Shown here in pieces: positions 1,541 to 26,135 of a DNA stretch of 64,000 nt. Every line of letters starts with the position of its first letter. Position 1 is the first letter of the stretch. The notes under the pieces were generated by a model, which searched no databases, was not told the DNA's origin, and worked only from the letters and a program-made list of their open reading frames with translations. The stretch is taken from assembly GCA_964549735.1 (NCBI GenBank), contig CAZJWO010000003.1, forward strand, positions 4,829-68,828. Reading direction: 5' to 3'. The DNA is from an uncultured Fibrobacteraceae bacterium. GTDB taxonomy: Bacteria > Krumholzibacteriota > Krumholzibacteriia > LZORAL124-64-63. A program made the translations under genes and the position numbers.

Positions 1541-3937
<2,397 letters not shown>

Positions 3938-6342: not shown

Positions 6343-6832
6343 ATGGCATTGAACATCGGGAAAGAGATCACCGCGCTGAAGCGCATGACCGTGCCAGAAC
6401 TGAGGCGGAAGTACGCCCATGTGTTCGGTGAAGACACGACATCCCGGCACAAGGAGTACTTGATCCGCCGCATCGTCTGGCGTCTCCAGGTGAACCAGGA
6501 CGGCGGCCTGTCCGAACGAGCACGGCTGCGGGCCAGAGAACTGGCCGCTGATTCTGACGTCCGTTTGACCGCCCCGCGTCCTCGCCCGATCGCACCTGGC
6601 GGCGAGATGACCACCGCGCCCATCGAGTTCCCCCAGGACGACCGCCTGCCGATGCCCGGCGCGATCATCACGCGCCAGTACAAGAGCCAGACGGTCGCGG
6701 TGCGGGTCCTGCCGCGGGGATTCGAGTACGAGGGCGAGGTGTACCGGACCTTGAGTGCGGTGGCCAAGAAGGTCACCGGCACCCACTGGAACGGCTTCAA
6801 CTTCTTCAAGTTGGGCCGGGCAGGGGGCACCG

Positions 6833-6843
<11 letters not shown>
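6343..6843 (+). CDS. DUF2924 family protein (typical partner encoded upstream of large serine recombinases)
   Basis: 166 aa. Its stop overlaps the recombinase start (ATGGCCGGTAG). Gene pair arrangement. Confidence 0.65.
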
Positions 6844-8382
<1,539 letters not shown>

Positions 8383-8386
<4 letters not shown>

Positions 8387-11713: not shown

Positions 11714-12337
11714 ATGGAGAACACGAAGCAGCGCATCCTCGACGGATACGCCCGAGACGTCATTCGCCACAAAGCCAGGCAACTGATCGGCAAGTACGGA
11801 TTCACCCGCGACGACTTCGACGACCTGCAGCAGGAGATGATGCTGGACCTGCTGCGCCGCCTCGGCAAGTACGACCCCAGCAAGGCGGGCCTCAGCACCT
11901 TCGTGGCCCGCATCGTCGACCGCAAGGTCTCCACCCTGATCCGCCACCAGCGGCAAGAGAAGCGCGACTACCGTCGGCCGGTCTGCTCGCTGGATGCGCA
12001 GGTCGAGGACCAGGACGGCCAGGCGCGGGGGCTCGACGAGGTCCTCAGCCAGGATGCCTTCGACGATGAGGTCGCACGGCACGATCGGCCACAGGCCGAG
12101 CGCCTGGACCTGAGACTCGATCTCTCGCTGGTGCTCGACGAGTTGCCCGAAGATCTGCGGCAACTCGCCCTCCGCCTGCAGACCCGGACCGTGGCCGAGA
12201 TCGCCCGCGAGTTGGGCGTGCCGCGCAGCACGCTCTACGAGAAGAGCATCGCCCGCCTGCGGAAGATCTTCGAGGACAAGGGGCTGCGCGAATACCTGGG
12301 CGAGGCCCGACACCCCGGCAAGGGACCGGGTAAGTAA
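11714..12337 (+). CDS. Sigma-70 family (ECF-like) RNA polymerase sigma factor, phage-encoded
   Basis: Region-2-like FTRDDFDDLQQEMMLDLLRRLGKYDP...STFVARIVDRKV and a region-4 HTH (TVAEIARELGVPRSTLYEKSIARLRKI). Confidence 0.7.
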   Translation: MENTKQRILDGYARDVIRHKARQLIGKYGFTRDDFDDLQQEMMLDLLRRLGKYDPSKAGLSTFVARIVDRKVSTLIRHQRQEKRDYRRPVCSLDAQVEDQDGQARGLDEVLSQDAFDDEVARHDRPQAERLDLRLDLSLVLDELPEDLRQLALRLQTRTVAEIARELGVPRSTLYEKSIARLRKIFEDKGLREYLGEARHPGKGPGK

Positions 12338-12381
12338 CCACCAGAGGGCCGACGGCCCAGGACCTGAGGAGAGGAATCACG

Positions 12382-12687
12382 ATGAATCGAGAAGTCCACC
12401 GCTACGAGTTCGAGGCCTCGGTGCCCGCGGACGAGATCGAAAGCACGCTGCTTCTGGCCGTGCTCGCGGTCGAGGGTCTGCACGGCACCTCGCGGGTGCG
12501 GCTCGACGCGAAGTACTGCATCGACACCGAAAAGCACGCCTGCGTGATCGACGCCGACACCGTCGTCGGCCAGGACATCAGCCGCATCTTCACGGGCTTC
12601 GCCATCCGCGAGTTCGGCGAGGAGGCCTTCACGGTCGGCCGCGCCGAACGCATGCCCAAGACCGAAACGGAGGACCTGAGCGCATGA
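12382..12687 (+). CDS. Hypothetical protein
   Basis: 101-aa ORF. Its stop overlaps the start of the downstream nuclease gene. Confidence 0.45.
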   Translation: MNREVHRYEFEASVPADEIESTLLLAVLAVEGLHGTSRVRLDAKYCIDTEKHACVIDADTVVGQDISRIFTGFAIREFGEEAFTVGRAERMPKTETEDLSA

Positions 12688-13511
12688 ACCTGCCCGGAGT
12701 ATTCAAACGACGCGAGTGGAGCGTCCAGGACCTGATCCGCGAACCTGCCGACGTCTACCACGCCAAGGCCGGCGAGTATCTCTCCAGCCACATGCTGGCC
12801 GAGTTCCGCCGCAACCCTCTGCTCTTCCACAAGAAGGAACTCGGTCTGATCGAGGATCAGGACCGGCCGGCGTACGTCCTCGGCCGGGCCGCCCATGTTC
12901 TGATCCTCGAGGGTCGGGAAGCCTACGAGCAGGCCTACGCATTCGGTGGACCGATCAACCCCAGGACGGGCCAGCCGTTCGGCAGCCGCACCAAGGCATT
13001 CCGCGAGTGGGCGGAAGCCCAGGGCAAGCCCGTGCTCGATGACGACCAGGCAGCTCTAGTCGAGAACCTGAACACGTCGGTGCAGGCCCACGAGCATGCC
13101 TCGAACCTGCTGGCCGACGGCATCGCCGAGGGTGTGATCCGTGCCGAGTACTGCGGCCTGCCGTGCCAGGCGCGCCTGGACTGGCTGAACCCCGAGCGCG
13201 GGATCGTCGACCTGAAGACCTGCGACAACCTCGACTGGCTCCAGATGGACGCACGCAGCTACGGCTACGTCTACCAGCTGGCCTTCTACCGGTCCCTGGC
13301 TGCCACGCTCACCGGCGAGCGGCTTCCCGTCTACATGATCGCTGTGGAGAAACGCGAACCGTTGCGGACGGGCGTCTGGCGCATGAGCGAGGAGGTCCTC
13401 GGTCTCGCCCAGAAGGAGAACGAAGAAGCCATCGCGCGCCTGATCGCCTGCCGTGAGAAGGACGAGTGGCTCACCGGCTACGAGGACATCCGCACCTACG
13501 ACCTGATCTGA
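12684..13511 (+). CDS. PD-(D/E)XK family nuclease (phage exonuclease, RecB/Cas4-like fold)
   Basis: Motifs ...RLDWLNPERGIVDLKTCD... (D...D/E-x-K) and YVYQLAFY (QxxxY). Typical partner of Sak4/SSB recombination modules. Confidence 0.65.
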   Translation: MNLPGVFKRREWSVQDLIREPADVYHAKAGEYLSSHMLAEFRRNPLLFHKKELGLIEDQDRPAYVLGRAAHVLILEGREAYEQAYAFGGPINPRTGQPFGSRTKAFREWAEAQGKPVLDDDQAALVENLNTSVQAHEHASNLLADGIAEGVIRAEYCGLPCQARLDWLNPERGIVDLKTCDNLDWLQMDARSYGYVYQLAFYRSLAATLTGERLPVYMIAVEKREPLRTGVWRMSEEVLGLAQKENEEAIARLIACREKDEWLTGYEDIRTYDLI

Positions 13512-13515
13512 CACA

Positions 13516-13600
13516 GGCGGAAGCGGGCGGAATGGCGTGACGCGCAGTCGCCCGGGCGCGTCGGGACTCCCTGGGTCCGCCCGCTTCCCCACCAACCCTA
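13516..13600. terminator. Long inverted repeat (13-bp arms GGAAGCGGGCGGA / TCCGCCCGCTTCC) downstream of the nuclease gene
   Basis: Seen directly in sequence. The arms are separated by ~45 nt. Confidence 0.3.
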
Positions 13601-13619
13601 GTCGAATGGAGAAACGACC

Positions 13620-14402
13620 GTGAAACTCTTGCAGCAAGTCACCACAGGCCGGAGCCCGGCACCGAGGCGGGTGATGCTCTACGGCACCCATGGCATCGGC
13701 AAGTCCACCTTCGCCTCGTGCGCGCCGGCCCCGGTGTTCATCCAGACCGAGGACGGCCTCGGCGAGATCGACTGCGCCAAGTTCCCGGTCACCACGACGT
13801 TCGATGAGGCCATGCAGGCCCTGTCGGAGCTGTACACCGACGAGCACTCCTATCGAACCGTCGTGGTCGATTCGCTGGACTGGCTGGAGCGGCTGATCTG
13901 GGCCGACGTCTGCCGTCGCCGCAACGTCGAGAGCATCGAGGACATCGGCTACGCCAAGGGTTACGTGTTCGCCCTGACGCAGTGGCGCGAGTTCCTCGAC
14001 GGCCTGGCGGCACTGCGCGGCGAGAAGGGCATGACGACGATCCTGATCGCCCACGCCCGCATCGAACGCTTCGAGAACCCCGAGACGGAATCCTACGACC
14101 GCTACGTGCCGCGCCTGCACCGCCTGGCTTCCCAGGTCCTGCAGGAGTGGTGCGACGAGGTCATGTTCGCCACGTTCAAGGTCTACACCAAGCAGACCGA
14201 CGAGGGCTTCGACCGCAAGCGCAACCAGGGCATCGGCACTGGCGAGCGAGTCCTGCGCACCGTCGAGCGCCCCTCCCACGTGGCCAAGAACCGTCTCGCC
14301 CTTCCCGAAGAGATGCCTCTGGCCTGGAATGTCTACGCCCAGCACATCCACCCCGAACCTGTCAGCGCGCCCCAGAGCGGCAAGACCAAAGGAGCCAAGT
14401 AG
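13620..14402 (+). CDS. Sak4-like AAA/RecA-fold ATPase (phage single-strand annealing / recombination)
   Basis: Walker A (LYGTHGIGKST). GTG start. Size ~260 aa. Followed by DUF669 and RusA. Confidence 0.65.
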   Translation: MKLLQQVTTGRSPAPRRVMLYGTHGIGKSTFASCAPAPVFIQTEDGLGEIDCAKFPVTTTFDEAMQALSELYTDEHSYRTVVVDSLDWLERLIWADVCRRRNVESIEDIGYAKGYVFALTQWREFLDGLAALRGEKGMTTILIAHARIERFENPETESYDRYVPRLHRLASQVLQEWCDEVMFATFKVYTKQTDEGFDRKRNQGIGTGERVLRTVERPSHVAKNRLALPEEMPLAWNVYAQHIHPEPVSAPQSGKTKGAK

Positions 14403-14404
14403 CC

Positions 14405-14860
14405 ATGGCGAACCTCAACGGATTCGATGCAGCGACCGTCGACCCCGCGAACGATTTCGAGCCTCTGCCCGCGGGCAAGTACCTCGCGGTGATCACCGAC
14501 TCGGAGATGAAGCCGACCAAGGCCGGAACCGGCCACTACCTCCAGATGACGTTCCAGGTCATCGACGGCCCGTTCAAGAACCGGCTGCTGTGGTCCCGGC
14601 TCAACCTGGACAATCCGAACCGCCAGGCGGTCCAGATCGCCCAGGGCGAACTGTCGGCCATCTGCCGGGCGGTTGGCGTGCTGCAGCCCAAGGACTCGGT
14701 CGAGCTGCACAACCTGCCCCTGCAGATCACCGTGAAGTGCAAGAAGCGGGACGACACCGGCGACGTGGTCAACGAGATCCGCGGTTACGCCGGCAAGGAC
14801 GCCGCCGCGGGCGTGCCCCAGCAGGAGACCTCGAGCACTCCGCCCTGGGCCCGCCGATGA
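14405..14860 (+). CDS. DUF669 family phage protein (SSB-like partner of Sak4)
   Basis: 151 aa, MANLNGFDAATVDPANDFEPLPAGKYLAVITDSE.... Conserved order after Sak4. Confidence 0.6.
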   Translation: MANLNGFDAATVDPANDFEPLPAGKYLAVITDSEMKPTKAGTGHYLQMTFQVIDGPFKNRLLWSRLNLDNPNRQAVQIAQGELSAICRAVGVLQPKDSVELHNLPLQITVKCKKRDDTGDVVNEIRGYAGKDAAAGVPQQETSSTPPWARR

Positions 14861-15210
14861 TCGAGGTCGAGCTCCCGTTCCCCCCGTCGGTGAACCACTA
14901 CTACCGGCGGGTCGGCCCCCGGACGCTCATCAGCCGCGAGGGGCGCAGGTTCCGTGAACGGGTCTGCGCCACGCTCGCCCGCCTCGGGATCGAGCGTTTG
15001 GAAGGGCCGCTGCACCTGGAGATCGAGGTGTACCCGCCGGACCGGCAGCGCAGGGATATCGACAACGTTCAGAAGGCGCTCCTGGACGCCCTCCAGCACG
15101 GCGGTCTGTACGCCGACGATAGCCAGATCAAGAAGCTGAACATCGAGATGCGCGGGCGCGTCCGCGGCGGCCGTACCCTCGTGCGCTTGGAGGAACTCGC
15201 CGATGCTTGA
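14857..15210 (+). CDS. rusA: RusA-family Holliday junction resolvase
   Basis: 117 aa, MIEVELPFPPSVNHYYRR...DIDNVQKALLDAL...D. ATGA overlap with the upstream gene. Confidence 0.75.
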   Translation: MIEVELPFPPSVNHYYRRVGPRTLISREGRRFRERVCATLARLGIERLEGPLHLEIEVYPPDRQRRDIDNVQKALLDALQHGGLYADDSQIKKLNIEMRGRVRGGRTLVRLEELADA

Positions 15211-16924
15211 ACTGAGGCCGTACCAGCAAGCGTCGGTGGACGCGATCTACCGTCACCTCAGAGAACGGGACGACAACCCGTGCGTGGTGATCCCCACCGG
15301 CGGCGGCAAGACACCCGTCATGGCCACGGTCTGCCGCGACGCGGTGGGCCGGTGGGGCGGCCGGGTCCTGATCCTGGCTCACGTGAAGGAGTTGCTGGAG
15401 CAGGCGCTGGAGAAGATCCAGATCGTGGCGCCCGAGATGTGGATGAAGACCGGGCTCTACTCGGCCGGGCTGAAGAGCCGCGACACAGAGCACCCGATCA
15501 TCATCGCCGGCATCCAGTCGGTGTACAGGCGGGCCTGCGAACTCGACGCATTCGACCTGGTGATCATCGACGAGGCCCACATGATCCCGCCCGATGGCGA
15601 TGGGATGTACCGGACCTTCCTCGACGACGCCAGGAAGGTGAACCCGAATCTGCGGGTGATCGGCCTGACCGCGACGCCGTTCCGGATGAAGAGCGGGATG
15701 ATCTGCGAGCCCGGCAACGTCCTGAACGAGGTCTGCTACGAGATCGGCGTGAAGGAACTGATCGTCCAGGGCTACCTCTGCCCGTTGGTGACCAAGGGGG
15801 CGGCCCAACCGTTGGACACCTCGAGCCTGCACGTGCGCGCGGGCGAGTTCATCGCCAGTGAGGCCGAGGAGTTGATGGACACCGACGAACTCGTGGAGTC
15901 GGCCTGTCGGGAGATCGTCGAGCAGGCGCAGGCGCGCCGGTCGGTGCTCGTGTTCACCACCGGTATCCGGCACGCGGAGCACGTCGCCGCGGTGCTGGGC
16001 CGGATGGCGAGCGAGCCCGTGGCCACGGTGTTCGGCGAGACGGCGAGCGAGGAGCGCGACCGGGTCCTGGCTCAGTTCAAAGAGGGTCGGATCAAGTACC
16101 TGGTCAATGTCAACGTGCTCACCACTGGGTTCGACGCCCCGAACATCGACTGCGTGGCCATGATGCGGCCGACGCTGTCCCCGGGCCTCTACTACCAGAT
16201 GGTCGGGCGGGGCTTCCGTCTGTGCGAGGGGAAGGAGAACTGCCTGGTTCTGGACTTCGGCGGCAACGTGCTGCGGCACGGGCCGGTCGACGCCATCCGG
16301 GTCCGGGAGGTCCACCACCGTGCGGGCGGCGAGGCGCCGGCCAAGCAGTGCCCCGTGTGCAGGAGCCTGATCGCCACCGGCTATACTGTCTGCCCTGACT
16401 GCGGCTACGAGTTCCCACCGCCGGAACGGCAACAGCACGACGCCACAGCATCCACCGAGGGCATCCTGTCGGGCGAGGTCGCGACGTCGGTCCACGAGGT
16501 CCGCGAGGTCTTCTACAGTGTCCACACGAAGAAGGGCGCGCCGGAGGATGCGCCCAAGACGCTGCGGGTCGAGTACGAGGTGGGGTTCCACCAGTACTAC
16601 AGCGAGTGGATCTGCTTCGAGCACGGCGGCTGGGCCCGCCACAAGGCCGAGTCGTGGTGGCGGAAGCGGTCGAACGCTCCGGTGCCGCTGACGGCGGCCG
16701 AGGCCGCGGCCCTGGCCCAGGACGGAGCCCTCTGCGAGACCGGCACCATCACCGTGCGGACGGTGGTCGGGGAGCAGTTCCCGCAGATCGTGGGCTACGA
16801 GCTGGGCGACCGGCCGCCATGGCGGGAGCCCGGGATGGATGATGTCCTCGAGCCGGTGGGCGCGATGGTCGAGGGCGGCGTGCGGGTGTACGACCCGCAC
16901 GATGACGACGATCTACCCTTCTGA
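15203..16924 (+). CDS. SF2 DEAD/DEAH-box helicase (phage replication helicase) with C-terminal Cys4 zinc finger
   Basis: Walker A (TGGGKT), DEAH box (IIDEAHM), helicase C-terminal motifs. CPVCRSL...CPDCGYEF. Confidence 0.8.
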   Translation: MLELRPYQQASVDAIYRHLRERDDNPCVVIPTGGGKTPVMATVCRDAVGRWGGRVLILAHVKELLEQALEKIQIVAPEMWMKTGLYSAGLKSRDTEHPIIIAGIQSVYRRACELDAFDLVIIDEAHMIPPDGDGMYRTFLDDARKVNPNLRVIGLTATPFRMKSGMICEPGNVLNEVCYEIGVKELIVQGYLCPLVTKGAAQPLDTSSLHVRAGEFIASEAEELMDTDELVESACREIVEQAQARRSVLVFTTGIRHAEHVAAVLGRMASEPVATVFGETASEERDRVLAQFKEGRIKYLVNVNVLTTGFDAPNIDCVAMMRPTLSPGLYYQMVGRGFRLCEGKENCLVLDFGGNVLRHGPVDAIRVREVHHRAGGEAPAKQCPVCRSLIATGYTVCPDCGYEFPPPERQQHDATASTEGILSGEVATSVHEVREVFYSVHTKKGAPEDAPKTLRVEYEVGFHQYYSEWICFEHGGWARHKAESWWRKRSNAPVPLTAAEAAALAQDGALCETGTITVRTVVGEQFPQIVGYELGDRPPWREPGMDDVLEPVGAMVEGGVRVYDPHDDDDLPF

Positions 16925-16926
16925 CG

Positions 16927-19080
16927 GTGAATCGGGTGTGTATGGGCGATCCCAAGACGACAATGCTGCAGGCCGCGTTGAGGTATGCGGAGCTCGGATA
17001 CCCGGTCTTTCCGTGCGTTTCGGGCGGGAAGGCCCCCGCGACGGCCCATGGCTTCCTGGACGCCACGACGGACGCCGGGCAGATTGAAGCCTGGTGGACG
17101 GCGCGGCCGGACTCGAACATCGGCATGCCGACCGCAGGCCTTCTGGTCGTTGACGTCGACGGGGCCGAGAACCCCTGGCCAGGCGGTGACCGGGAGGGAA
17201 TGACCAACTGCCCGGTGTCGCTGACTCCTCGCGGCGGTCGGCACCACGTCTTCCGGCAGCCACCGGGCAAAGCATGGAGCAGTACGGCGAGTCGGCTCGC
17301 GCCGAAGGTCGACACCCGGGCCAACGGCGGCTACATCGTCCTGCCGCCCTCGGCGGTGGGCGGGAAACCGTACAAATGGGCCGGGGGATTCGAGACCGCC
17401 CCGGCCGACCTGCCCGAACCCCCCGCGTGGCTCGTGGCGCAGGTTGAGGGAGGGACGGACCTCTTTGAACAGGCGACGGGCGTGGCCACAGTGGGCGGGC
17501 CAGTCGCGCCCCAGGACGCGCCCGTGGCGCCCCAGTGCGCGCCGGCGGCCACCGGTGGCAATGTGATACCAGCCGGGCACAGGAACGCCACGTTGGCGCG
17601 CCTGGGCGGGGCCATGCGCCGGGTTGGGATGAGCCAGGCGGAGATCCTGGCTGCCCTGGCCCGGGCCAACGAGGACCGCTGCAACCCACCGCTCAAGGAC
17701 CGCGAAGTCGAGCGGATCGCGGCGAGCATCGCCCGGTACGAGCCCGATCAGGTGGCCGTCGCGGTGGCGGAGAACCACTGGGGGCAGGACAACGACGAAG
17801 CTCCGGAAGACGAAGTGCCCCAGGATGTCCAGGACCCGGGGCCGATGCCGGACGAGCTGTTCAGGATCCCCGGTTTCGTGTCCGAGGTCATGGACCACTG
17901 CCTGGACACGGCCCCGTATCCGAACCTGGTGATGAGCTTCGCCGGGGCTCTGGCACTGCAGGCGACGCTTGCCGGCCGGAAGGTCCGCGACCCCGGGAAC
18001 AACCGGACGAACCTCTATCTGTTGGGTCTGGCGCACTCGGCAGCCGGCAAGGACAGGCCTCGGAAGCTCAACACCGAGATCCTGCACGCGGTCGGGCTGT
18101 CGCACCAACTCGGAGGACGGTTCGCTTCGGGTGAGGGCATCCAGGATGCCCTCTTCAGCGAGCCTTGCATGCTGTTCCAGACCGACGAGATCGACGGCAT
18201 GCTGCAGTCGATCAACAAGGCCCGCGATGCCCGCCACGAGAACATCATGGGCGCGATGCTGACGATCTATTCGTCGGCCGACTCAGTGTTTCCCATGCGC
18301 CGCAAGGCCGGCCGGGATGCCCCTGGGGCCATCGACCAGCCGTGCCTCGTGGTGTTCGGGACCGCCATCCCGAAGCACTACTACGAGGCACTTTCCGACC
18401 GAATGCTGACCAATGGGTTCTTCGCCCGCATGATCATCCTCGACTGCGGAGGGCGATCGCCAGGGCAGGAGCCGAAGCTCAAGCCCTTGCCGGATCGGGT
18501 TCTCGAGACTGCGCAGTGGTGGGCGGACTTTCAGCCCGGGACAGGCAACCTCGAGAACTGGCACCCGGAACCACGAGTCATCCAACACACGGACGAGGCG
18601 AAGGAGATCCTGGTCGAGATGCGCCTCGAGGCGGAGGCCGAGTACGCGCGGGCCGAGACTGTGGAGGACGAGGCCGGTACGACGGTCTGGGGGCGAGTCA
18701 GCGAGCACGCGAGAAAGCTCGCCCTTCTCTACGCGATCAGCGAGAACCACATCGAGCCGAAGATCGGCGCTGAGGCTGTCGAGTGGGCACGGCGATTCGT
18801 CACGCACCAGGCCCGGCGCATGCTTTTCATGGCCCAGTCCCACGTAGCGGAGAACCCGTTCCAGGGGGAGTGCTTGAAGTTCCTCAAGAAGCTCGGCGGA
18901 GCACCCGGCGGAGAGCTCGCCCACAGCGTTCTCTTGAAGCGGATGAAGGTCGACGCCAAGACCTTCCAGGGGCTCGTGACTACTCTCGAACAGCGCGGAG
19001 ATATCATCACCAGGACCTCCTGCGCGCGCGGCACCACGGCGCGCTTCTACCGGTTGGTGAGCCGCCGTCCCGAGCGGTGA
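16927..19080 (+). CDS. Bifunctional primase-polymerase (Prim-Pol N-terminal domain) with a large C-terminal replication-associated domain
   Basis: N-terminal ...YAELGYPVFPCVSGGKAP...GLLVVDVDG... (Prim-Pol signature). 717 aa. Confidence 0.7.
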   Translation: MNRVCMGDPKTTMLQAALRYAELGYPVFPCVSGGKAPATAHGFLDATTDAGQIEAWWTARPDSNIGMPTAGLLVVDVDGAENPWPGGDREGMTNCPVSLTPRGGRHHVFRQPPGKAWSSTASRLAPKVDTRANGGYIVLPPSAVGGKPYKWAGGFETAPADLPEPPAWLVAQVEGGTDLFEQATGVATVGGPVAPQDAPVAPQCAPAATGGNVIPAGHRNATLARLGGAMRRVGMSQAEILAALARANEDRCNPPLKDREVERIAASIARYEPDQVAVAVAENHWGQDNDEAPEDEVPQDVQDPGPMPDELFRIPGFVSEVMDHCLDTAPYPNLVMSFAGALALQATLAGRKVRDPGNNRTNLYLLGLAHSAAGKDRPRKLNTEILHAVGLSHQLGGRFASGEGIQDALFSEPCMLFQTDEIDGMLQSINKARDARHENIMGAMLTIYSSADSVFPMRRKAGRDAPGAIDQPCLVVFGTAIPKHYYEALSDRMLTNGFFARMIILDCGGRSPGQEPKLKPLPDRVLETAQWWADFQPGTGNLENWHPEPRVIQHTDEAKEILVEMRLEAEAEYARAETVEDEAGTTVWGRVSEHARKLALLYAISENHIEPKIGAEAVEWARRFVTHQARRMLFMAQSHVAENPFQGECLKFLKKLGGAPGGELAHSVLLKRMKVDAKTFQGLVTTLEQRGDIITRTSCARGTTARFYRLVSRRPER

Positions 19081-19152
19081 AGAACCCCCGAAGGTGAATC
19101 ACGTCCTGGCTCAGACGCCACAAACCGTTTTCATGCAACCCGTTACAGGTCG

Positions 19153-19330
19153 TTTCACCGTTTCACCCCATCTCGCAGGGGGTGAAAGAGGGTGAAGCGA
19201 GAATGCTGTAACTTATTATATACAAACACACTCTCTCTCCTTTTCCCCTTTCACCCACCCCCGCGCATATTCCTCTCCGTCTCCGCGCGCGTATATGAGA
19301 CCCCGGGGGTGAAAGGTGAAAAAGGTGAAA
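19153..19330. repeat. Iteron-like cluster: >=8 copies of GGTGAAA / TTTCACC in both orientations around an AT-rich core (putative phage replication origin or partition site)
   Basis: GTTTCACCGTTTCACCCC; GGGGGTGAAAGAGGGTGAAGCG; TTATTATATACAAACACAC; CCCCTTTCACCC; GGGGGTGAAAGGTGAAAAAGGTGAAACGG. Confidence 0.6.
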
Positions 19331-19344
19331 CGGCGGAATCCGGG

Positions 19345-19980
19345 TTAGGGATGCTCACTGCCCGATGCGGACAGAATGCTGTAACCGGCTTTGTTGACGG
19401 CGGCCTCGATGGTGTCGGGGTCGACGACGGCATTACCGCCGACACTGACCACGGCCGATCTGTCCTCGTAGGACACTTTCGCGCCGATCACTCCGGGAAC
19501 ATCGGCCAGGGCCTTCGTGAGGATGCCTGCGCATCCTTCACACGTCATCCCGCCGATCGCCAGATGGAGGGTTCGGACTTCGCCGGTCACCGGTTGGCCG
19601 AGCTCCGATGATGCTCCCCCGACGACAAGCCCGACATAGCTGGGGAAGAATGCAAACGCCACGACGAATACGGTTGCGATCCAAAGCATGATGCGATTGA
19701 AACGCTGAAGGCGGGGCCGGGGTGTGGCGCACATCGAGCCAGGAGCACATCGCTCCTTGCGGAAGTAGTTGAAGTAGAAACCGGTCGCCAGCAAGAAGGT
19801 CGCCATGGCTAGGAAGACCAGGCGGTACTTCTCGAAGAACGAGGCGACTCCGACCGCCGAGGCCCCGAAGGCGATCAGGGCGAGCGGCAGCCAGCAGCAG
19901 GCCGATGATGCGATGGCCGAGACCACGGAGCCCACCGTGGCGAAAACGCCCAAGCGCTGGGATGTCCCGGAGGCGTTCAT
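19345..19980 (-). CDS. merT: MerT-MerP fusion: mercuric/heavy-metal transporter (CC motif in TM1, cytoplasmic Cys pair) fused to a C-terminal HMA domain (GMTCEGC)
   Basis: SAIASSACCWLPLALIAFG (MerT TM1 signature); ...CAPGSMCATP...; C-terminal LAIGGMTCEGCAGILTKALADVPGVIGAKVSY. Start set at MNASGTS (ATGA overlap with the upstream gene). The annotated longer N-terminus is Arg-rich junk. Confidence 0.75.
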   Translation of the reverse strand: MNASGTSQRLGVFATVGSVVSAIASSACCWLPLALIAFGASAVGVASFFEKYRLVFLAMATFLLATGFYFNYFRKERCAPGSMCATPRPRLQRFNRIMLWIATVFVVAFAFFPSYVGLVVGGASSELGQPVTGEVRTLHLAIGGMTCEGCAGILTKALADVPGVIGAKVSYEDRSAVVSVGGNAVVDPDTIEAAVNKAGYSILSASGSEHP

Positions 19981-20282
19981 GCGGTTGCCTGTTCCCGGAT
20001 GGCATCCTCGATCATCTGCCGTGGGGGCGTGCCGGAACTCCCGTACATCCGGCAGCCGTAGGCATAATCGGTACGCGACCGAACTGCAGGATCGGCATCG
20101 ATGCCGTTGATCTGCACCGACGGCGAGCCGAAGAAGCGGTGCCGGTGCGCCTGCTCGGGGTCGTTCACTTCGACGGTGGTGACGGCTGCGTCGACGCCCA
20201 GTTCCGACACCACCTGCTCCACGATCTCCATCGTGGGGAGAAAATTCGGGCATCCTTCGAAATAGAGCACTTCGATCTTCAT
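19977..20282 (-). CDS. Small thioredoxin-fold protein (MKIEVLYFEGCPN...) in a mer-like operon
   Basis: ~101 aa. Cys in FEGCPN plus a later YGCRMYG. Positioned between merR and merTP with 4-nt overlaps on both sides. Confidence 0.55.
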   Translation of the reverse strand: MKIEVLYFEGCPNFLPTMEIVEQVVSELGVDAAVTTVEVNDPEQAHRHRFFGSPSVQINGIDADPAVRSRTDYAYGCRMYGSSGTPPRQMIEDAIREQATA

Positions 20283-20710
20283 GTTCTCTCCTCCTCGAGA
20301 GCTTCCAGAATTGGACATTCACTGGCGGGCCCGGAGCCGTGGCAAGAGGCGGCAAGCATCGCGAGAGCGCGTTTCATGCGCTTGAGTTCGCGGATCCGCT
20401 CCTCGATGCCGGCGATCTTCGTTTCCGCTCGGGCTTTGACATCGGCGCAAGTCGTATTGGTGTCCACCCGCAGCGCGAGCAGATCCGCGATCTCGTTCAG
20501 GGTGAACCCCAGATCCTTCGCGCGCCGGATGAACATGACCCTGGCTACGGTATCGGCCGGGTACTCCCGATAGCCGGAACTGTTGCGCGGCGGTTCCTTG
20601 AGCAGCCCCGAGCGTTCGTAGAAACGGATGGTTTCGACGCCGACTCCGGCTTGTTTCGCGACCTGGCCAATGGTGAACACGCTCACGGTAATCTCCTCGT
20701 CAATGGACAA
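20279..20710 (-). CDS. merR: MerR-family metal-responsive transcriptional regulator (Hg/heavy-metal type, three conserved Cys)
   Basis: N-terminal HTH FTIGQVAKQAGVGVETIRFYERSGLL. Coiled-coil dimerisation region. Cys at ~86, ~121, ~130 (TTCADV, ASCHG, ECP). Confidence 0.8.
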   Translation of the reverse strand: MSIDEEITVSVFTIGQVAKQAGVGVETIRFYERSGLLKEPPRNSSGYREYPADTVARVMFIRRAKDLGFTLNEIADLLALRVDTNTTCADVKARAETKIAGIEERIRELKRMKRALAMLAASCHGSGPASECPILEALEEERT

Positions 20711-20715
20711 GATAC

Positions 20716-20737
20716 ACCCTGTACCATACTACAGGGT
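20716..20737. promoter_or_regulatory. Perfect dyad ACCCTGTA-N6-TACAGGGT immediately upstream of merR, flanked by TTGACC (-35-like) on the minus strand: MerR-type operator/promoter
   Basis: Seen directly in sequence. On the minus strand it reads TTGACC-ctgtagtatggtacagggtg-TATCTT (long-spacer promoter with internal dyad). Confidence 0.55.
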
Positions 20738-20882
20738 CAAGGGGCAAACAGGAGAAAATCGCAACTATATCAATTGGGGGCGGTCAGTCTTGGAAGTGGG
20801 TGGGGGGGATATATCCGTTCCTGAAGCCGACAGACCCCTCGCATCGCCGAGAGGTCGTCGGTTCATAGCGGGTTCCAGCGAG

Positions 20883-21137
20883 CTAGGCTTCGGTCTGGAC
20901 CTCCTTCATGATCGCCCGCACCGCCGCATCGTCCTTCCGCGCAGCGGCCACCAGAAGACTGCGAGCGAACTTCGAGGCCTTCCCCGGTCCGGCCGCCTTG
21001 TGGATGTCGTTCCGCTCCTCCTCGGTCAGCCGGAAGGCGAACACGCAGAGTTCCTCGCGCGGGGCCTTGGCTTTGGAGGCGGGTTTCTCGGCCGCAGGCT
21101 TGCGGGCCCGCGTGGTCTTCTTGGTCGTCTTGGCCAT
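20883..21137 (-). CDS. Ribbon-helix-helix (CopG/MobC-like) DNA-binding protein with Lys-rich N-terminal tail
   Basis: ...ELCVFAFRLTEEERNDIHKAAGPGKASKFARSLLVAAA.... Confidence 0.5.
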   Translation of the reverse strand: MAKTTKKTTRARKPAAEKPASKAKAPREELCVFAFRLTEEERNDIHKAAGPGKASKFARSLLVAAARKDDAAVRAIMKEVQTEA

Positions 21138-21140
21138 CGG

Positions 21141-21392
21141 TCAGTTCCTTTCGCTCGGGTCCAGACGCGCGATCCGGCTGGGCTCCTTGCCGCAGCCTTC
21201 GCACGCCACTCGCCCGCCCTGGCGGTCGATCTCCGCCATGTCAGCGGGCGTGATCTCTTCCCACCGTTCCCAGATCCAGGTGTCGGACCCGGGATAGGGG
21301 ATGTGGCAGCAGGCGCAGACGATGCTGCCCCGCTCGTTCCAGAACACCTGGTGGGCCTTCAGGCCGAATCGCGGGGTCGCGTTCTTCGCCAT
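21141..21392 (-). CDS. Small Cys-rich (zinc-finger-like) hypothetical protein
   Basis: CACCH...CEGCGKE motifs. 83 aa. Confidence 0.45.
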   Translation of the reverse strand: MAKNATPRFGLKAHQVFWNERGSIVCACCHIPYPGSDTWIWERWEEITPADMAEIDRQGGRVACEGCGKEPSRIARLDPSERN

Positions 21393-21393
21393 G

Positions 21394-21720
21394 TCAGTCC
21401 ACCTCCCGCGGGATATCCGCCGCGAACACCAGCGTCCCGTCAGCGCCGTAGATCTCGACGCGGTCGATCCTGGTGTCGGGGTTCTCGCGGCCGGCGCGCA
21501 GGATGGCCTGGCTGGCCCGCATGGCGGTCAACCGCCCGTAGGCTTCGAGGCGTGCCTCCTGCCGGTCGGTGAACAGGGTCGGGTTCTCGTCGATCTGGAG
21601 TCCGCCCCGGAACTGCAACTCGAGGTCGCGGAGCGAGGCCTCGAACACGAGATCCTCGAGCGTGCTGTTCGGCTTCGGGTCGACTACGACCCAGAACTTG
21701 TCGTCAGGTCCGTAGCGCAT
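21394..21720 (-). CDS. Hypothetical protein
   Basis: 108-aa ORF coupled to its neighbours. Confidence 0.45.
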   Translation of the reverse strand: MRYGPDDKFWVVVDPKPNSTLEDLVFEASLRDLELQFRGGLQIDENPTLFTDRQEARLEAYGRLTAMRASQAILRAGRENPDTRIDRVEIYGADGTLVFAADIPREVD

Positions 21721-21916
21721 CGTCGCTGCCTCCTTCGTTCGTCATCTGGGCGACCGTGCGGTCGCCTTCTTCGCGATCGGCGACGGGGATGAGCATCCCC
21801 TGGCCGACGACGTACCATCCGTCGCGCCGGTGAATGACCCGCAGGTCGCCGCTGAGGTCGAATTCCATCCCGTCGCTGAAGCGCAGCCTGGCGGGGCGGT
21901 CATGATTGGATGCCAT
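21704..21916 (-). CDS. Small hypothetical protein
   Basis: ~70 aa starting MASNHDRPARLRF.... The upstream part of the annotated ORF is junk. Confidence 0.3.
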   Translation of the reverse strand: MASNHDRPARLRFSDGMEFDLSGDLRVIHRRDGWYVVGQGMLIPVADREEGDRTVAQMTNEGGSDDALRT

Positions 21917-22109
21917 GATTTGCTCCTTTCGGGACGCCGGGCCCCGTGCCCGCCGCATTGACAGTGACGAGCTTTCTGGGCCGAATGGGAAGGCAAATCG
22001 ACCCGGTAAATGCATTATTTCCAGTGATTTAAGTGCTCGCGAGGATCGGCGGATCGGGGCCGGATTCTGGCGCTTCACGGGGCCTCGCCCAGGCCGGGAT
22101 TGGCCCCCG

Positions 22110-23960
22110 TTACCCCCGCCAGCCATCGATCCACCCCCGGGGGCGTCGCACAGGCATCGACGGCTCGGACTCGGCCGCCGCCTGGACCTCTCGCTGGTGG
22201 GCCAGGGCCGCCGCTCGCTCGGGCAGAGACTTCACGAACGCGGGGCCGAGGATATAGAGGGCCGCCAGGCAATAGACCTCGAGGTCGAGGGCCTCGTTGC
22301 GGTCGCGGGTCTTGATCCACTCACGGACCGTGCCACGGTTCTTCACCCACTTGCGGATGGCCTTCTCCGCGGTCAGCTGGGCGATGTACTCTTCGTCAGT
22401 CCATTCGGGGAGGTGGCAGTAGCCGGGGCCCGGCGACCCGATGCGTAAACGCGAGTAGACGATCTCCTTGCCTGTGTCCACGCAGAGGGTGAACAGCTTC
22501 GCGCGGTACCGGTTGTGAGTAGATGGGCGACCGACCAGGGGCTTGCCTCGCTCGGAACCGCCGCGGACAGCGAACACGCGCCGGTCGATCCTGGCACGGC
22601 AGAACCGGTAGACCTGCTCGGAGTGGTGTCCGCCGCTGTCGACGGCGACGCAGGAGATCGGGACCTTCTGCCCGCTCTCGTGGGCGAACTCGGTTCGCAG
22701 GAAGCGGTCGAGGTCGAGCCAGACCTGGTCGCGCCCCGGATCACCGTGGAACTGGGAGAACGCGACGAGCCAGGACTCCTCCGACGCGCCGTATCCCTTT
22801 ACAGCGCACTCGAGCCGGTCGCCCTGGACATCGACCGAGGCTACGAGCACGCCCACGCCGTTGGGTACCTCGGCTTCGTATCGCTCCGCCCGGGCCAGCA
22901 GGCTGTCCGGGTCGACGGTCTCTCCGCGCTCCTCCCAGGTCTCTCCGAGTACGCTGTTGACCCAGTTCTTCAGCTTGAGGGGGTTCTCCTTGGCCTCCCG
23001 GAACTCGGTGACGGTGGCCGACCACGGGAGCCAGCCCAACGGCGAGTAGAGGCTGGACAGATGAAACCCGATCGTCTCGCCGGTGCCCTTGGCGGTGGGG
23101 CGCCACTGGCCGGATGCGAGCATCTGCGGCTTGAATCGTTCCTCGATCAGGACACCGCAGTTCACGCAGGCCAGAGCCGCGGTCTTGGGGTCATCGTCAC
23201 GCCACCGGATGTTCTCCCACCGCATCCAGTCGAAGTTGCCGCATTCGGGGCAGGGGACGAAGTACCGCCGCTGATCCGAGGCCAGGAATTCCCGCTCGAT
23301 CCGGGAGATGCCCTTGATCGTGGGTGTCGAGACCAGGAACACCTTGCGGCGCGAGTACAGTGGCCCAGTGGTGCGCTTCTCCGCCAGTGCGATCGGATCG
23401 CCCTGGCCGTCGACATCGCCCGGGTACTCGTCGATCTCGTCGCAGAAGAGCCAGCGGATCGGCATCGATTTGACGCCGGTCGCGGAGTTGGAGCCCGTCA
23501 GGAACAGCACGCCGCCGGGGAATTCCTTGATCAGGAGGCTGTTGCCGCCGTCTCGGGACCGCGCCTCGCGGACAAGCTCGTGCAGCACCGGCGTAGTGGC
23601 GATCATGGGATCGAGGCGCTGCCGACTGAACCGCCGGGCTTCGTCCACGGTGGGGCGCAGGACCAGGATCGGCCCAGGTGCGTGGTGCATCACGTAGCCG
23701 AGCCAGTTGTTGCCGGCCTCGGTGCCACCGAGCTGCGAGCCCTTCATGAAGACGACCCGGCGAGCCGGCGACCGCGGACCCAGGGCGTCCATGATCTCGC
23801 GCAGGTAGGGCGTCGTGTCCGTGTGCCAGTGGACAGCAGCATGGCCCGAGCGGTTGCCTAGCACGCGGTGTTCGTCGGCCCATTCGCTGACCGTCAGCCG
23901 CGGCTCCGGCCGCCATCCCGCCCGATAGGCGGCTTCGTAGACGTCACGGCCGTTCTGCAT
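22110..23960 (-). CDS. Phage terminase large subunit, GpA (lambda) family
   Basis: 616 aa. N-terminal ...LTVSEWADEHRVLGNRSGHAAVHWHTDTTPYLREIMDAL...KGSQLGGTEAGNNW... matches GpA-type terminases. Confidence 0.85.
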   Translation of the reverse strand: MQNGRDVYEAAYRAGWRPEPRLTVSEWADEHRVLGNRSGHAAVHWHTDTTPYLREIMDALGPRSPARRVVFMKGSQLGGTEAGNNWLGYVMHHAPGPILVLRPTVDEARRFSRQRLDPMIATTPVLHELVREARSRDGGNSLLIKEFPGGVLFLTGSNSATGVKSMPIRWLFCDEIDEYPGDVDGQGDPIALAEKRTTGPLYSRRKVFLVSTPTIKGISRIEREFLASDQRRYFVPCPECGNFDWMRWENIRWRDDDPKTAALACVNCGVLIEERFKPQMLASGQWRPTAKGTGETIGFHLSSLYSPLGWLPWSATVTEFREAKENPLKLKNWVNSVLGETWEERGETVDPDSLLARAERYEAEVPNGVGVLVASVDVQGDRLECAVKGYGASEESWLVAFSQFHGDPGRDQVWLDLDRFLRTEFAHESGQKVPISCVAVDSGGHHSEQVYRFCRARIDRRVFAVRGGSERGKPLVGRPSTHNRYRAKLFTLCVDTGKEIVYSRLRIGSPGPGYCHLPEWTDEEYIAQLTAEKAIRKWVKNRGTVREWIKTRDRNEALDLEVYCLAALYILGPAFVKSLPERAAALAHQREVQAAAESEPSMPVRRPRGWIDGWRG

Positions 23961-24507
23961 CCGCGATCTCCTGGCAGATCCGTTCGATTTCTTCCTCGAG
24001 GATGCGCTGGACCTCGGCGGGTTCCTGGACGGCGGCCAGGACGGTGGCGAGACGCTCGGGCAGGGCGATCAGCTGGTCGCGCGCCTTGCGGGCCATGTTG
24101 AACGCGCCGAGGCGGACCTCGTCGGCGGGGACGAGTGCACCGCGCCGGCGATCCAGCTCGAGCTTGGCCAGCTGCGCCTGGTACAACTCGCGAGCGGCGC
24201 GGGCTTTGGCGTAGCCGGTGGCTGTGGATGGCGCACCGATGGTCTCGTCGGCCGAGCCCAGGTCCATGGGTTCAGACGGCTCGCCCGGTGTCTTGGCTTG
24301 CTTTGGGTTGCCGGTGATCCGGTTGCGGGGCTTGCTCTGGTCGGTGTTCTGCTGCCACTCCTGGTCGGCAACGACAGGGTCGATTTTCCCGTTCACAGTC
24401 GAGATCCGGCCCGCCTTGATGGCGCGCTGAACTGCGACGTGGGTGACGCCACGCCGACGGGCGTACTCCCGTTGGGAGATCAGCTCCTTCTTCGCTTCCC
24501 TGACCAC
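23944..24507 (-). CDS. Phage terminase small subunit (HTH, Nu1/P27-like)
   Basis: N-terminal HTH ISQREYARRRGVTHVAVQRAIKAGRI. Overlaps the terL start. Acidic coiled-coil C-terminus. Confidence 0.6.
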   Translation of the reverse strand: MVREAKKELISQREYARRRGVTHVAVQRAIKAGRISTVNGKIDPVVADQEWQQNTDQSKPRNRITGNPKQAKTPGEPSEPMDLGSADETIGAPSTATGYAKARAARELYQAQLAKLELDRRRGALVPADEVRLGAFNMARKARDQLIALPERLATVLAAVQEPAEVQRILEEEIERICQEIADAERP

Positions 24508-24510
24508 CGC

Positions 24511-26007
24511 CTATCCATCCTGGTCGGCCCTGCGGTCGGCGGCGATCTCGTCGAAGGCCCGGCCGTCGCCGTCCAGGATGGCCTTCTGGCCGGTGGCTTC
24601 CTGCCAGCGCATCACGATCACGTCCGTGTACGCGGGATCGAGTTCCATGAGGAAGGCATGGCGGCCGGTTTGCTCCGCTCCCATCAGGGTCGAGCCGCTG
24701 CCGCCGAACAGGTCGAGCACGTTCTGGCCGGGCTTCGACGAGTACTGGATGGCCCGCACGGCCAACTCGACCGGCTTCTCGGTCAGGTGGACCATGCTCT
24801 GTGGGTTGACCTTCTTGACCGCCCAGACGTCGACGGCGTTGGTGGGGCCGTAGAACTTGTGGCCGGCTCCTTCGCGCCAGCCGTAGAACGCCCACTCGTG
24901 GTTGCCCATGTAGTCTTTGCGGGTGAGCACGGGGTGCTCCTTCACCCAGATGACCGCCTGGCTGAAGTACAGGCCGCAGGCCTTCAGCACCGGAGGGTAG
25001 TTGGCGCAGTTGGCGTAGCCGCCCCAGATGTAGAACGAGTGCCCCGGCTGCAGCACGCGGGCGATGTTCCCGAACCACGCCAGGAGCATCTCGTCGAAGG
25101 CCTCGTCCGTGACGAAGTCGTTGGCCAGTGGGCGGTCCTTGGGGCGCATCTTCCCGGTGGCCTTCGACTTGGTCTTGTGCCGCGCGAGGTCGAAACCCTG
25201 GTGGTGCATGCCTTTCGCATCGGAGGCCTCGACGGCGCTCTTGGTGGACGGCGGGAAGCTGGACAAGCCGGCGGCAATGGCGTTGTTGGACCGCGGTTCG
25301 ACCTTCACGTTGTAGGGAGGGTCGGTGTTCACGAGGTGGATCTTCTCGCCGCCCAGCAGTCGGTCGACGGCGGCAGAGTCGCAGCTGTCGCCGCACAGTA
25401 GGCGGTGGTTGCCAAGGACCCACAGGTCGCCAAGGCGACTCGTAGGCTCCTCAGGCGGCTCGGGGGCGGCGACCTCCTCCGGGATCTCCTCGTCGAGCAG
25501 GGTGTTGAGTTCGTCCAGGTCGAAGCCGGTCAGCTCGAGGTTGAAGTCGAGATCCTCGAGTGCCTTCAACTCCTCGGACAGCAGATCCTCATCCCAGCCG
25601 GCGTCCAGCGCGAGCCGGTTGTCGGCGATGACGTAGGCCCGCTTCTGGGCCTCGGTCAGGTGGGTGAGCTCGATCACCGGGACCGTGGTCATGCCCAGCT
25701 CGCGGGCCGCCAGCAGCCGACCGTGGCCCGCGATGATGCCGGCCTCGCCGTCGACCAGGATCGGGTTGGTCCACCCGAACTCGAGCAGGCTGGCCGCGAT
25801 CTTGGTGACCTGCTCGGCGCTGTGGGTCCGCGGGTTTCGCTCGTAGGGGCGGAGCCGGTCGATGTTCCAGTGTTCCAGTTTCCCGGGCAGTCTCACGGGA
25901 GACTCGGCACGCGCGGAATCGTCCGTAGGGGCCGTTTCGGGCGCGTCTGAGGCCTTCTTCGATTTACCAGCACTGGAACGTTTGGTGTCGGTGGTAACTT
26001 GTTTCAT
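24511..26007 (-). CDS. ParB-like nuclease domain fused to a DNA N6/N4 methyltransferase (phage anti-restriction/orphan MTase)
   Basis: ParB-N motif (...RNPRTHSAEQV...GHGRLLAAREL...) followed by DPPY (VNTDPPYNV) and SAM-binding motifs. Confidence 0.8.
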   Translation of the reverse strand: MKQVTTDTKRSSAGKSKKASDAPETAPTDDSARAESPVRLPGKLEHWNIDRLRPYERNPRTHSAEQVTKIAASLLEFGWTNPILVDGEAGIIAGHGRLLAARELGMTTVPVIELTHLTEAQKRAYVIADNRLALDAGWDEDLLSEELKALEDLDFNLELTGFDLDELNTLLDEEIPEEVAAPEPPEEPTSRLGDLWVLGNHRLLCGDSCDSAAVDRLLGGEKIHLVNTDPPYNVKVEPRSNNAIAAGLSSFPPSTKSAVEASDAKGMHHQGFDLARHKTKSKATGKMRPKDRPLANDFVTDEAFDEMLLAWFGNIARVLQPGHSFYIWGGYANCANYPPVLKACGLYFSQAVIWVKEHPVLTRKDYMGNHEWAFYGWREGAGHKFYGPTNAVDVWAVKKVNPQSMVHLTEKPVELAVRAIQYSSKPGQNVLDLFGGSGSTLMGAEQTGRHAFLMELDPAYTDVIVMRWQEATGQKAILDGDGRAFDEIAADRRADQDG

Positions 26008-26135
26008 GGTTCTCCCACGCTACGAGAGCCGAGGTCGCCGGCACCCGCGGTTGATGCCGCCGGAAGTACCTACAGCATCGTCGGTTGTAATTCGGAGGCT
26101 TCGCGGGGGCGAAGCGGTGAGCGATTCTCTCGGGT

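Follow-up and report, generated by a model that had tools for sequence, protein, structure and literature searches.

A 64,000-nucleotide stretch of contig CAZJWO010000003.1 from an uncultured Fibrobacteraceae bacterium (hereafter the window) was analysed, and the interval 19076–19336 was found to carry an array of short repeats directly 3′ of a gene encoding a putative replication initiator. The window appears to hold an integrated phage, and from the sequence and by analogy with characterised replicons we consider this interval likely to be the vegetative replication origin of that phage. We favour this reading because the layout of the array follows the homologous initiator gene and because the repeat word changes with the winged helix predicted at the C-terminus of the initiator. 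The limits of the array also favour it: the array starts in the stop codon of the initiator gene and ends where the similarity to close relatives ends.

Seven exact copies of GGTGAAA are located in 19153–19330, three in reverse orientation (19153, 19161 and 19249) and four in forward orientation (19181, 19308, 19315 and 19324). The preliminary description of this region had counted at least eight copies of the 7-mer; its coordinates and orientations were right, but the forward copy at 19191 is a GGTGAAG variant, giving seven exact copies plus one variant. Two further GGTGAA cores, GGTGAAG at 19076 and GGTGAAT at 19093, were read from the sequence 5′ of the array (19076–19099, plus strand), bringing the total in 19076–19330 to 10, with six cores to the left of an AT-rich core and four to its right. 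The proximal pair is followed by two exact reverse iterons (19153–19167, minus strand), GGTGAAAC twice, 8 bp apart, which pair with 19179–19187 as a perfect 9-bp inverted repeat. Two forward iterons, GGTGAAA and GGTGAAG (19181–19197, plus strand), flank the AT-rich core on its left and one exact reverse iteron (19249–19255, minus strand) lies on its right, and three forward GGTGAAA copies at spacings of 7 and 9 bp (19308–19330, plus strand) form the right edge of the putative origin. The array had been placed directly downstream of the Prim-Pol gene, as is the case: the stop codon of that gene ends at 19080. This TGA codon sits within the GGTGAAG at 19076–19082, and GGTGAA is found at or beside the initiator stop codon in many relatives, so the initiator coding sequence and the putative origin would overlap. 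The array is thus as first described, but the origin as read here reaches left to the stop codon (19076) and takes in a conserved GC-rich block.

The 178 bp hold seven of the 12 exact GGTGAAA copies of the whole window, for which about 5 would be expected per entire 64 kb; the remaining five sites are isolated, each outside any cluster. The density of the shorter core GGTGAA is 10 here versus 0.29 per 360 nt in the rest of the window. Among all 7-mers in the 64-kb window, the array is the tightest cluster. In 60 Markov-1 simulated sequences of 64 kb, the best cluster of any 7-mer within 180 bp usually had 4 copies and never more than 6, so that the observed cluster exceeds every simulation and the enrichment claimed for the 7-mer is upheld.

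The AT-rich spacer (19198–19248, unstranded) is the proposed unwinding element, recognised by a GC minimum and by an equivalent spacer in 49 related loci. The 30-nt GC minimum is 0.27 at 19199–19229, against a window average of ~0.65, and a minimum that low is reached at only three places between 6.5 and 55 kb. Within the spacer are TTATTATATACAAACAC at 19213–19229, the conserved word ACAAACACACTCTCTCTCC (19222–19240) and a degenerate reverse repeat, CCTTTTCCCC (19239–19248). Across the 49 loci the equivalent spacer has a median length of 57 nt, is 64% A+T and contains AACAACAACTCTCTCT-like words; its conserved word, A/C-rich and then CT-rich, is retained even where the repeat word differs (related locus L086). 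The forward copies at 19181 and 19191 on the left of the core face one exact reverse copy (19249) and the degenerate one (19239–19248) on the right, where L083 and similar relatives have two exact reverse copies. The iterons build an imperfect 23-nt inverted repeat (19180–19202 and 19234–19256, 74% complementary), whose arms enclose a 31-nt AT-rich loop (DNA fold z = −3.9).

To the right of the core, a conserved GC-rich block of alternating purines and pyrimidines (19256–19307, unstranded) keeps its length and pattern in the 49 loci. The window version is 52 nt long and contains, in order, a C-run, CGCGC, GCGCGCGTATATGAG and a G-run; the family pattern is a C-run, CGCGCG, GCGTGTGT, GAG and a G-run, with a median length of 55 nt (interquartile range 52–57) and ~66% GC. 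The block might serve for priming or as a second platform for assembly. A hairpin in the block was considered and rejected: for 42 aligned blocks, RNAalifold returned −1.6 kcal/mol and a covariation term of −0.08. An Rfam search of 18500–20000 gave sub-threshold microRNA-precursor matches alone, which reflect the inverted repeat and were likewise rejected, and seven related loci had no Rfam match at gathering thresholds.

For comparison, 5 viral contigs, 80 loci from metagenome-assembled genomes and 14 viral loci seeded from a divergent member were assembled, the 80 genome loci being assigned to Planctomycetota, Eisenbacteria, Krumholzibacteria, Deltaproteobacteria, Fibrobacter and others. Of the candidates scored, 2,256 proteins belong to the initiator family at E < 1e-20. 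In most of ~90 related loci the array layout recurs directly 3′ of the homologous gene, so that the array is present in homologous phages, a check set in the preliminary description. The order is one or more reverse repeats, a short gap, forward repeats and then the AT-rich spacer with its AACAACAACTCTCTCT-like word, after which come reverse repeats, the GC-rich block and forward repeats; the family consensus of the repeat is ~rGGTGAAAG. Of the 72 non-redundant loci that carry the canonical helix LLKR[MSV]K, 65 have three or more GGTGAA less than 410 nt from the stop codon, the background being 0.33 per 410 nt. Word, orientation and spacing are conserved across proteins 50–60% identical and hosts assigned to several phyla, and GGTGAAA is retained by the low-GC relatives L088 and L089, whose ATPase core is just 51–55% identical to that of the window protein. 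A literature search for GGTGAAA as an iteron returned only an unrelated vector paper. Many of the Planctomycetota loci (L054–L056, L058 and L063–L085) align to the window protein from residue ~270–300 on; in these loci the N-terminal Prim-Pol portion may be encoded separately or have been replaced, with the array still present.

The association was also found starting from the DNA. The DNA-only pattern GGTGAA-N25-55-ACTCTCTCT-N3-33-TTCACCC was scanned over 2.9 million viral contigs and occurred at 49 places, at 47 of which a homologous C-terminal coding region ends 59–131 nt upstream on the same strand; one of the other two is too near the locus edge to judge and one lacks the initiator gene. 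Within this viral contig collection, the architecture is essentially confined to the DNA directly 3′ of the initiator gene.

The repeat word was then compared with the winged helix. When the loci are ranked by winged-helix identity to the window, the bottom seven (0.14–0.39; L031, L057, L096, L037, L092, L086 and L039) are exactly the loci with zero GGTGAA, and six of these seven have ATPase cores 68–76% identical, the same range as many GGTGAA-bearing loci. At least three GGTGAA were found in none of the five loci with a non-canonical helix (Fisher p = 4e-5, uncorrected for phylogeny). In six of these seven loci a different word is over-represented, with 3–9 copies placed on both sides of a local AT-rich minimum, namely, in the order of listing, CAATAAG in L031, AATAGG in L057, GAAAAC in L096, GAARGAT in L037, AAACGTG in L086 and GAAAGAT in L039. 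These words are nearly missing from the remainder of each locus, and the six mapped loci keep the array layout, each with a repeat word specific to it; the pattern is clearest in L031, L057 and L086. The case of L092 is weaker, since a composite pattern, itself barely enriched, was needed to describe its repeats. So the word is strongly conserved as long as the winged helix is, and where the domain has been replaced, all copies of the word have changed with it. The earlier proposal of a phage origin with iterons and a DNA-unwinding element is thereby strengthened on three counts: the layout conserved after the gene, the reciprocal pattern search and the tracking of the winged helix by the word.

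The putative initiator itself (717 aa; 16927–19080, plus strand) was described from Pfam and PHROG searches, a homologue and the family alignment. It contains a Prim-Pol domain at residues 17–164 (PF09250, E 1e-37) and a PriCT-1 domain at residues 212–274 (PF08708, E 2e-15), and matches PHROG 'DNA primase' families over most of its length; an NCBIfam search returned no match. The 70%-identical homologue P0044 matches PF13148 (DUF3987) over its central part (E 4e-8), and a Walker A-like motif, GLAHSAAGKD, and a Walker B-like motif, LFQTDEID, were read from the family alignment, in which both are invariant. The C-terminal domain (residues ~644–710, encoded by 18856–19056, plus strand) is predicted to be a winged helix from AlphaFold2 and Foldseek, and is the proposed reader of the iterons. 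Its model has the order helix-strand-helix-helix-strand-strand at a predicted local distance difference test score (pLDDT) of ~87–92, and its top Foldseek matches against the PDB are all winged-helix DNA binders (MarR, PadR, ArsR/HlyU and TFE-alpha), with root-mean-square deviations of 2–2.5 Å over 66–69 columns.

By analogy with SaPI (Staphylococcus aureus pathogenicity island) Rep, the alpha protein of P4 and ORF904 of pRN1, we infer a sequence of repeat binding, melting, self-loading and priming. The 717-aa Prim-Pol/PriCT-1/DUF3987-ATPase protein would recognise rGGTGAAAG via its C-terminal winged helix, and copies of it would assemble on the oppositely oriented repeat sets either side of the AT-rich core. 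The core (~19199–19240) would then melt, the ATPase domain would load itself as the helicase, and the Prim-Pol domain would make the first primers for a host polymerase. A more far-reaching combined reading is conceivable, although we hold it to be rather doubtful. It would take the origin as bipartite, in which it would differ from the descriptions of SaPI, P4 and pRN1, and the pairs of winged helix and repeat word as a recognition code of DUF3987 proteins. Each of two ~55-bp spacers would be bracketed by inverted iteron sets, the AT-rich one with its AACAACAACTCTCTCT-like word being the unwinding element, while the GC-rich tract (CGCGCG...GCGTGTGT) could be a Prim-Pol start site or a second helicase-loading platform. 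The code would include pairs for GGTGAAA, AAACGTG, GAAAAC, CAATAAG and AATAGG, and DUF3987 would be a new helicase family.

Several observations weigh against the origin reading. The window protein itself reaches no Pfam helicase or ATPase model, and its central domain searched alone gave nothing. With phmmer and profile searches against all PDB chains, no similarity to solved structures was found, SaPI Reps and P4 alpha included. The full-length AlphaFold2 model, built from 15 sequences, has a mean pLDDT of 48, with residues 274–643 below 50, and the Foldseek E-values of the winged helix are weak (~0.007–0.06). To the right of the AT-rich core the window has a single exact reverse repeat plus one degenerate copy. 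Three loci with a canonical winged helix (L030, L076 and L077) have no array, and two others (L003 and L026) have degenerate repeats only. In L030 and in L076 and L077, one of the latter two labelled Pirellula staleyi and the other Pirellula sp., the DNA 3′ of the gene is unrelated; the three may be decayed or rearranged elements. Finally, the statistics relating word and winged helix ignore phylogeny, and since the two are adjacent, their joint divergence could partly be the exchange of one segment rather than co-adaptation.

The most serious rival, although we judge it improbable, is that the array is a packaging site (cos or pac), the repeats being small-terminase sites and the GC-rich block the cleavage site of a gpA-type terminase. 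Genes for a gpA-type large terminase (22110–23960, minus strand) and a small terminase (23944–24507, minus strand), both identified by domain and PHROG matches, lie 2.8–5 kb from the array. Across the family the array stands at the boundary between the replication and packaging arms, with terL 1.4–4.7 kb downstream, which also counts against an origin. In lambda, cosB likewise has repeated protein-binding sites beside a partly symmetric GC-rich nick site. The array, however, always abuts the initiator stop codon, while the distance and orientation of the terminase genes vary and, in the window's clade, variable cargo separates them from the array. The repeat word, moreover, tracks the initiator winged helix, an AT-rich core between inverted repeats is a feature of origins, and the contig ends examined fall elsewhere than the GC-rich block. 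A lambda-type cos site in particular fits poorly with an array 4.6 kb from terS and beyond terL, with variable cargo between.

A role in transcriptional control is very improbable; on this view a phage regulator would use the repeats as operators, and the AT-rich core would serve as promoter for the genes downstream of the replication arm. No sigma-70-like promoter or intrinsic terminator was found when both strands of 18900–19600 were scanned. In its favour, TATATA-like words occur in the core, the next genes in most relatives are co-directional and require a promoter, and many origins are activated by transcription, as in lambda. In the window's clade, however, no transcription leads away from the array on its downstream side, and the array is still ~94% identical. 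A separate conserved motif farther downstream (see below) is a better candidate for a promoter or leader. The repeats would need a binding protein anyway, for which the winged helix, adjacent and co-varying, is the evident candidate.

The preliminary description had also offered a partition site, and plasmid centromeres do typically have such arrays, with short repeats in both orientations. It is nevertheless highly unlikely that the array is a centromere-like site to which a ParB-type protein binds. There is no ParA/ParB operon: no ParA was found among the open reading frames (ORFs) scanned, and the sole ParB_N domain is fused to an N6/N4 DNA methylase (24511–26007, minus strand; domain matches) 5 kb away. 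The array tracks the primase-helicase gene and not the ParB-methylase gene, and the element appears to be integrated, with a serine recombinase gene (6755–8386) and host-like flanks. Non-functional repeat debris or chance has nothing but the location between converging genes to recommend it and is practically negligible, given a cluster above all simulations and a word, orientation and spacing conserved across proteins 50–60% identical.

The putative origin fills the 264-bp gap between the initiator gene (plus strand, 16927–19080) and a merT-merP fusion (minus strand, stop at 19345). Upstream of the initiator gene are genes for a PDDEXK nuclease, an AAA_24 ATPase, RusA and a superfamily 2 (SF2) helicase; farther left are a sigma-70-like gene (11714–12337), a large serine recombinase gene (6755–8386) and a gene for a host-like P-type ATPase. 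The latter, a heavy-metal ATPase gene (1541–3937), adjoins the recombinase gene. To the right, on the minus strand, follow merR, two small ORFs, the terminase genes, the ParB_N-methylase fusion and a gene with a tail-protein match. The GC content falls from ~0.65 to 0.54 past ~55 kb, and this drop and the recombinase/ATPase side probably mark the two ends of the phage. Because of the phage genes, the serine recombinase, the host-like flank and the GC drop, the window appears to hold an integrated phage at roughly 6.5–55 kb, with the array in its interior. An attP site was dismissed, the array being in the middle of the element and far from both the serine recombinase gene and the composition boundaries. 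A megablast search of 12000–24000 against 50,697 GenBank phage records returned no match.

The strand of the packaging arm was compared between the window (22110–26007) and L086, L090, L096 and 16 loci. In most relatives the ParB-methylase and gpA-type large terminase genes are on the initiator strand, with the terminase 3.2–4.7 kb downstream; the packaging genes of the window's clade occupy the other strand, 1.4–2.8 kb from the array. The array remains at the initiator stop codon in both orientations of the arm. This suggests that the packaging arm was inverted or rearranged in the window's clade, with one boundary at the origin.

Relatives have, shortly upstream of the next gene, a conserved motif of ~100 nt, TAGGTACTTCC...GCGGGAACAG...AGAGTTTGTTT...GTCCGGTTTT, mostly located 215–270 nt after the initiator stop codon and without an Rfam match. 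It was found in L015, L046, L047, L056, L063, L065, L067, L069, L072, L075, L080, L082 and L090. Its GGAAC-N17-GTTTG spacing resembles a promoter of extracytoplasmic function (ECF) sigma factors, and the phage encodes a sigma-70-like protein. The window retains the TAGGTACTTCC part alone, at 26052–26062 (minus strand), upstream of the ParB-methylase gene.

The segment 19341–20818 (minus strand) is cargo and lies outside the putative origin, as judged from Pfam MerT, HMA and MerR matches and from comparison with L094 and L095. It is a mercury-resistance cassette without merA, comprising the merT-merP fusion (19345 to ~19980, minus strand; Pfam MerT and HMA), merR (20279–20710, minus strand; Pfam MerR) and a MerR-type dyad, ACCCTGTA-N6-TACAGGGT, at 20716–20737. 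Similarity to the ~94%-identical relative L094 runs to 19340 and resumes at 20819, so that 1,478 bp of mer segment replace 25 bp in L094, and L095 has a different insert of 1.49 kb in the same slot. The cargo starts 10 bp past the last iteron, and in five close relatives the similarity is lost no more than a few bases from the last repeat (19330–19340). From these alignments, the right edge of the putative origin is read as a slot for variable cargo. The preliminary description had placed the array at the convergence point of the replication arm and the mer operon. The gene arrangement is as stated; because the mer segment replaces 25 bp of L094, the closest relative, which has no mer genes, and because L095 has another insert there, the mer genes are taken to be a cargo insertion and their convergence with the array to be incidental. 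An exact 13-bp direct repeat, AGAATGCTGTAAC, is present at 19200–19212 in the AT-rich spacer and at 19373–19385 in the 3′ coding end of merP (naive chance ~0.004 for a 700-bp region). The first copy is conserved in relatives and the second is 33 nt inside the cargo junction; the pair was rejected as a recombination scar of mer insertion, as neither copy is at the junction 19340/19341.

If the reading is correct, a concrete origin and repeat word would become available for a very large and uncharacterised primase-helicase family, with more than 2,200 relatives (E < 1e-20) in phage-like elements of genomes assigned to Planctomycetota, Eisenbacteria, Krumholzibacteria, Deltaproteobacteria and other phyla. 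It would also support the earlier prediction that the winged helix of archaeo-eukaryotic primase (AEP)-PriCT-ATPase proteins is an origin reader, and supply natural specificity variants for binding studies. The initiator gene with its array (16927–19340) would be a candidate minimal replicon of ~2.4 kb, a possible vector backbone for poorly tractable phyla, and the site just past the origin would be a slot that collects different cargo, here mercury genes.

The putative origin was compared with those of known systems. In SaPIs, Rep is initiator and helicase in one, and its C-terminal winged helix binds 6–12 short iterons immediately downstream of rep (PMC9371898). The SaPI origin is AT-rich at its centre, with iterons of opposite orientation to either side, Rep is self-loading, probably in the form of two hexamers, and in SaPI5 primase and Rep are fused as Pri-Rep (PMC9371898). 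The present locus is similar in that 10 cores, within the SaPI range of 6–12, extend from the initiator stop codon (19076) to 19330, that the initiator has a predicted C-terminal winged helix and that iterons lie on both sides of an AT-rich centre; primase and helicase are possible in one chain in both systems, and in both, relatives differ in specificity through their iteron words. The locus differs from the SaPI system in that the initiator has no detectable sequence similarity to SaPI Reps, that its ATPase is of the DUF3987 type and that its primase is of the archaeo-eukaryotic Prim-Pol kind, with PriCT-1. Iteron cores have 7–8 nt versus 5–6 nt in SaPIs, a conserved GC-rich block of ~55 nt is present in addition, together with another repeat set, and the element is a complete phage that encodes a terminase itself rather than a satellite.

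The alpha protein of P4 combines a primase, a helicase and a C-terminal winged-helix origin binder in one polypeptide (PMC2777425). It has a DnaG-type primase and a superfamily 3 (SF3) helicase, unlike the window protein with its Prim-Pol PF09250, and no sequence homology between the two was detected. The iterons bound by P4 alpha are short, of the TGTTCACC type, and surround an AT-rich stretch in both orientations. P4 also requires crr, a second cis site, whereas the 64-kb window has no second cluster of GGTGAAA or of a comparable 7-mer. The GC-rich block has no described counterpart in the SaPI and P4 origins. In oriV of RSF1010, iterons are followed by a GC-rich stretch beside an AT-rich one, and priming is carried out by an AEP-type primase, RepB′; RSF1010 has separate RepA, RepB′ and RepC proteins and hairpin ssi sites. 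Unlike these, the GC-rich block here has no conserved hairpin in the 42 aligned blocks.

In the Sulfolobus plasmid pRN1, the gene for ORF904, a prim-pol/helicase/winged-helix protein, is followed directly on its 3′ side by the essential origin, which consists of a large inverted repeat and its loop (PMC4234260). Like ORF904, the window protein has, at its N-terminus, a Prim-Pol domain (PF09250) followed by a probable helicase (DUF3987, seen through the homologue) and a modelled winged helix, all in one protein, but the helicase of pRN1 is of the SF3/D5_N type. The pRN1 origin is a stem-loop of ~100 bp without recognisable iterons, whereas the imperfect inverted repeat here has 23-nt arms, a 31-nt loop and is made of iterons.

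AEP-PriCT-(DUF3987/DUF927/VirE)-winged helix proteins of integrated mobile elements have been catalogued, with the ATPases predicted to be helicases (Kazlauskas et al. 2018, PMC5862659). In the passages of that survey on these proteins, the winged helix is considered likely to serve in origin recognition and no cognate origins are described (PMC5862659). The window protein has the same domain architecture as the AEP-PriCT-DUF3987-winged helix proteins covered in those passages, and a candidate origin and repeat word are now at hand for one large subfamily. Since no solved structure shows sequence similarity to the initiator, its membership of the SaPI Rep or P4 alpha family lacks support; the claim is that the initiator works like them. 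The layout is known from other mobile elements, and the region is therefore most likely a new example of a familiar origin design, which leaves the general view of how origins work unchanged.

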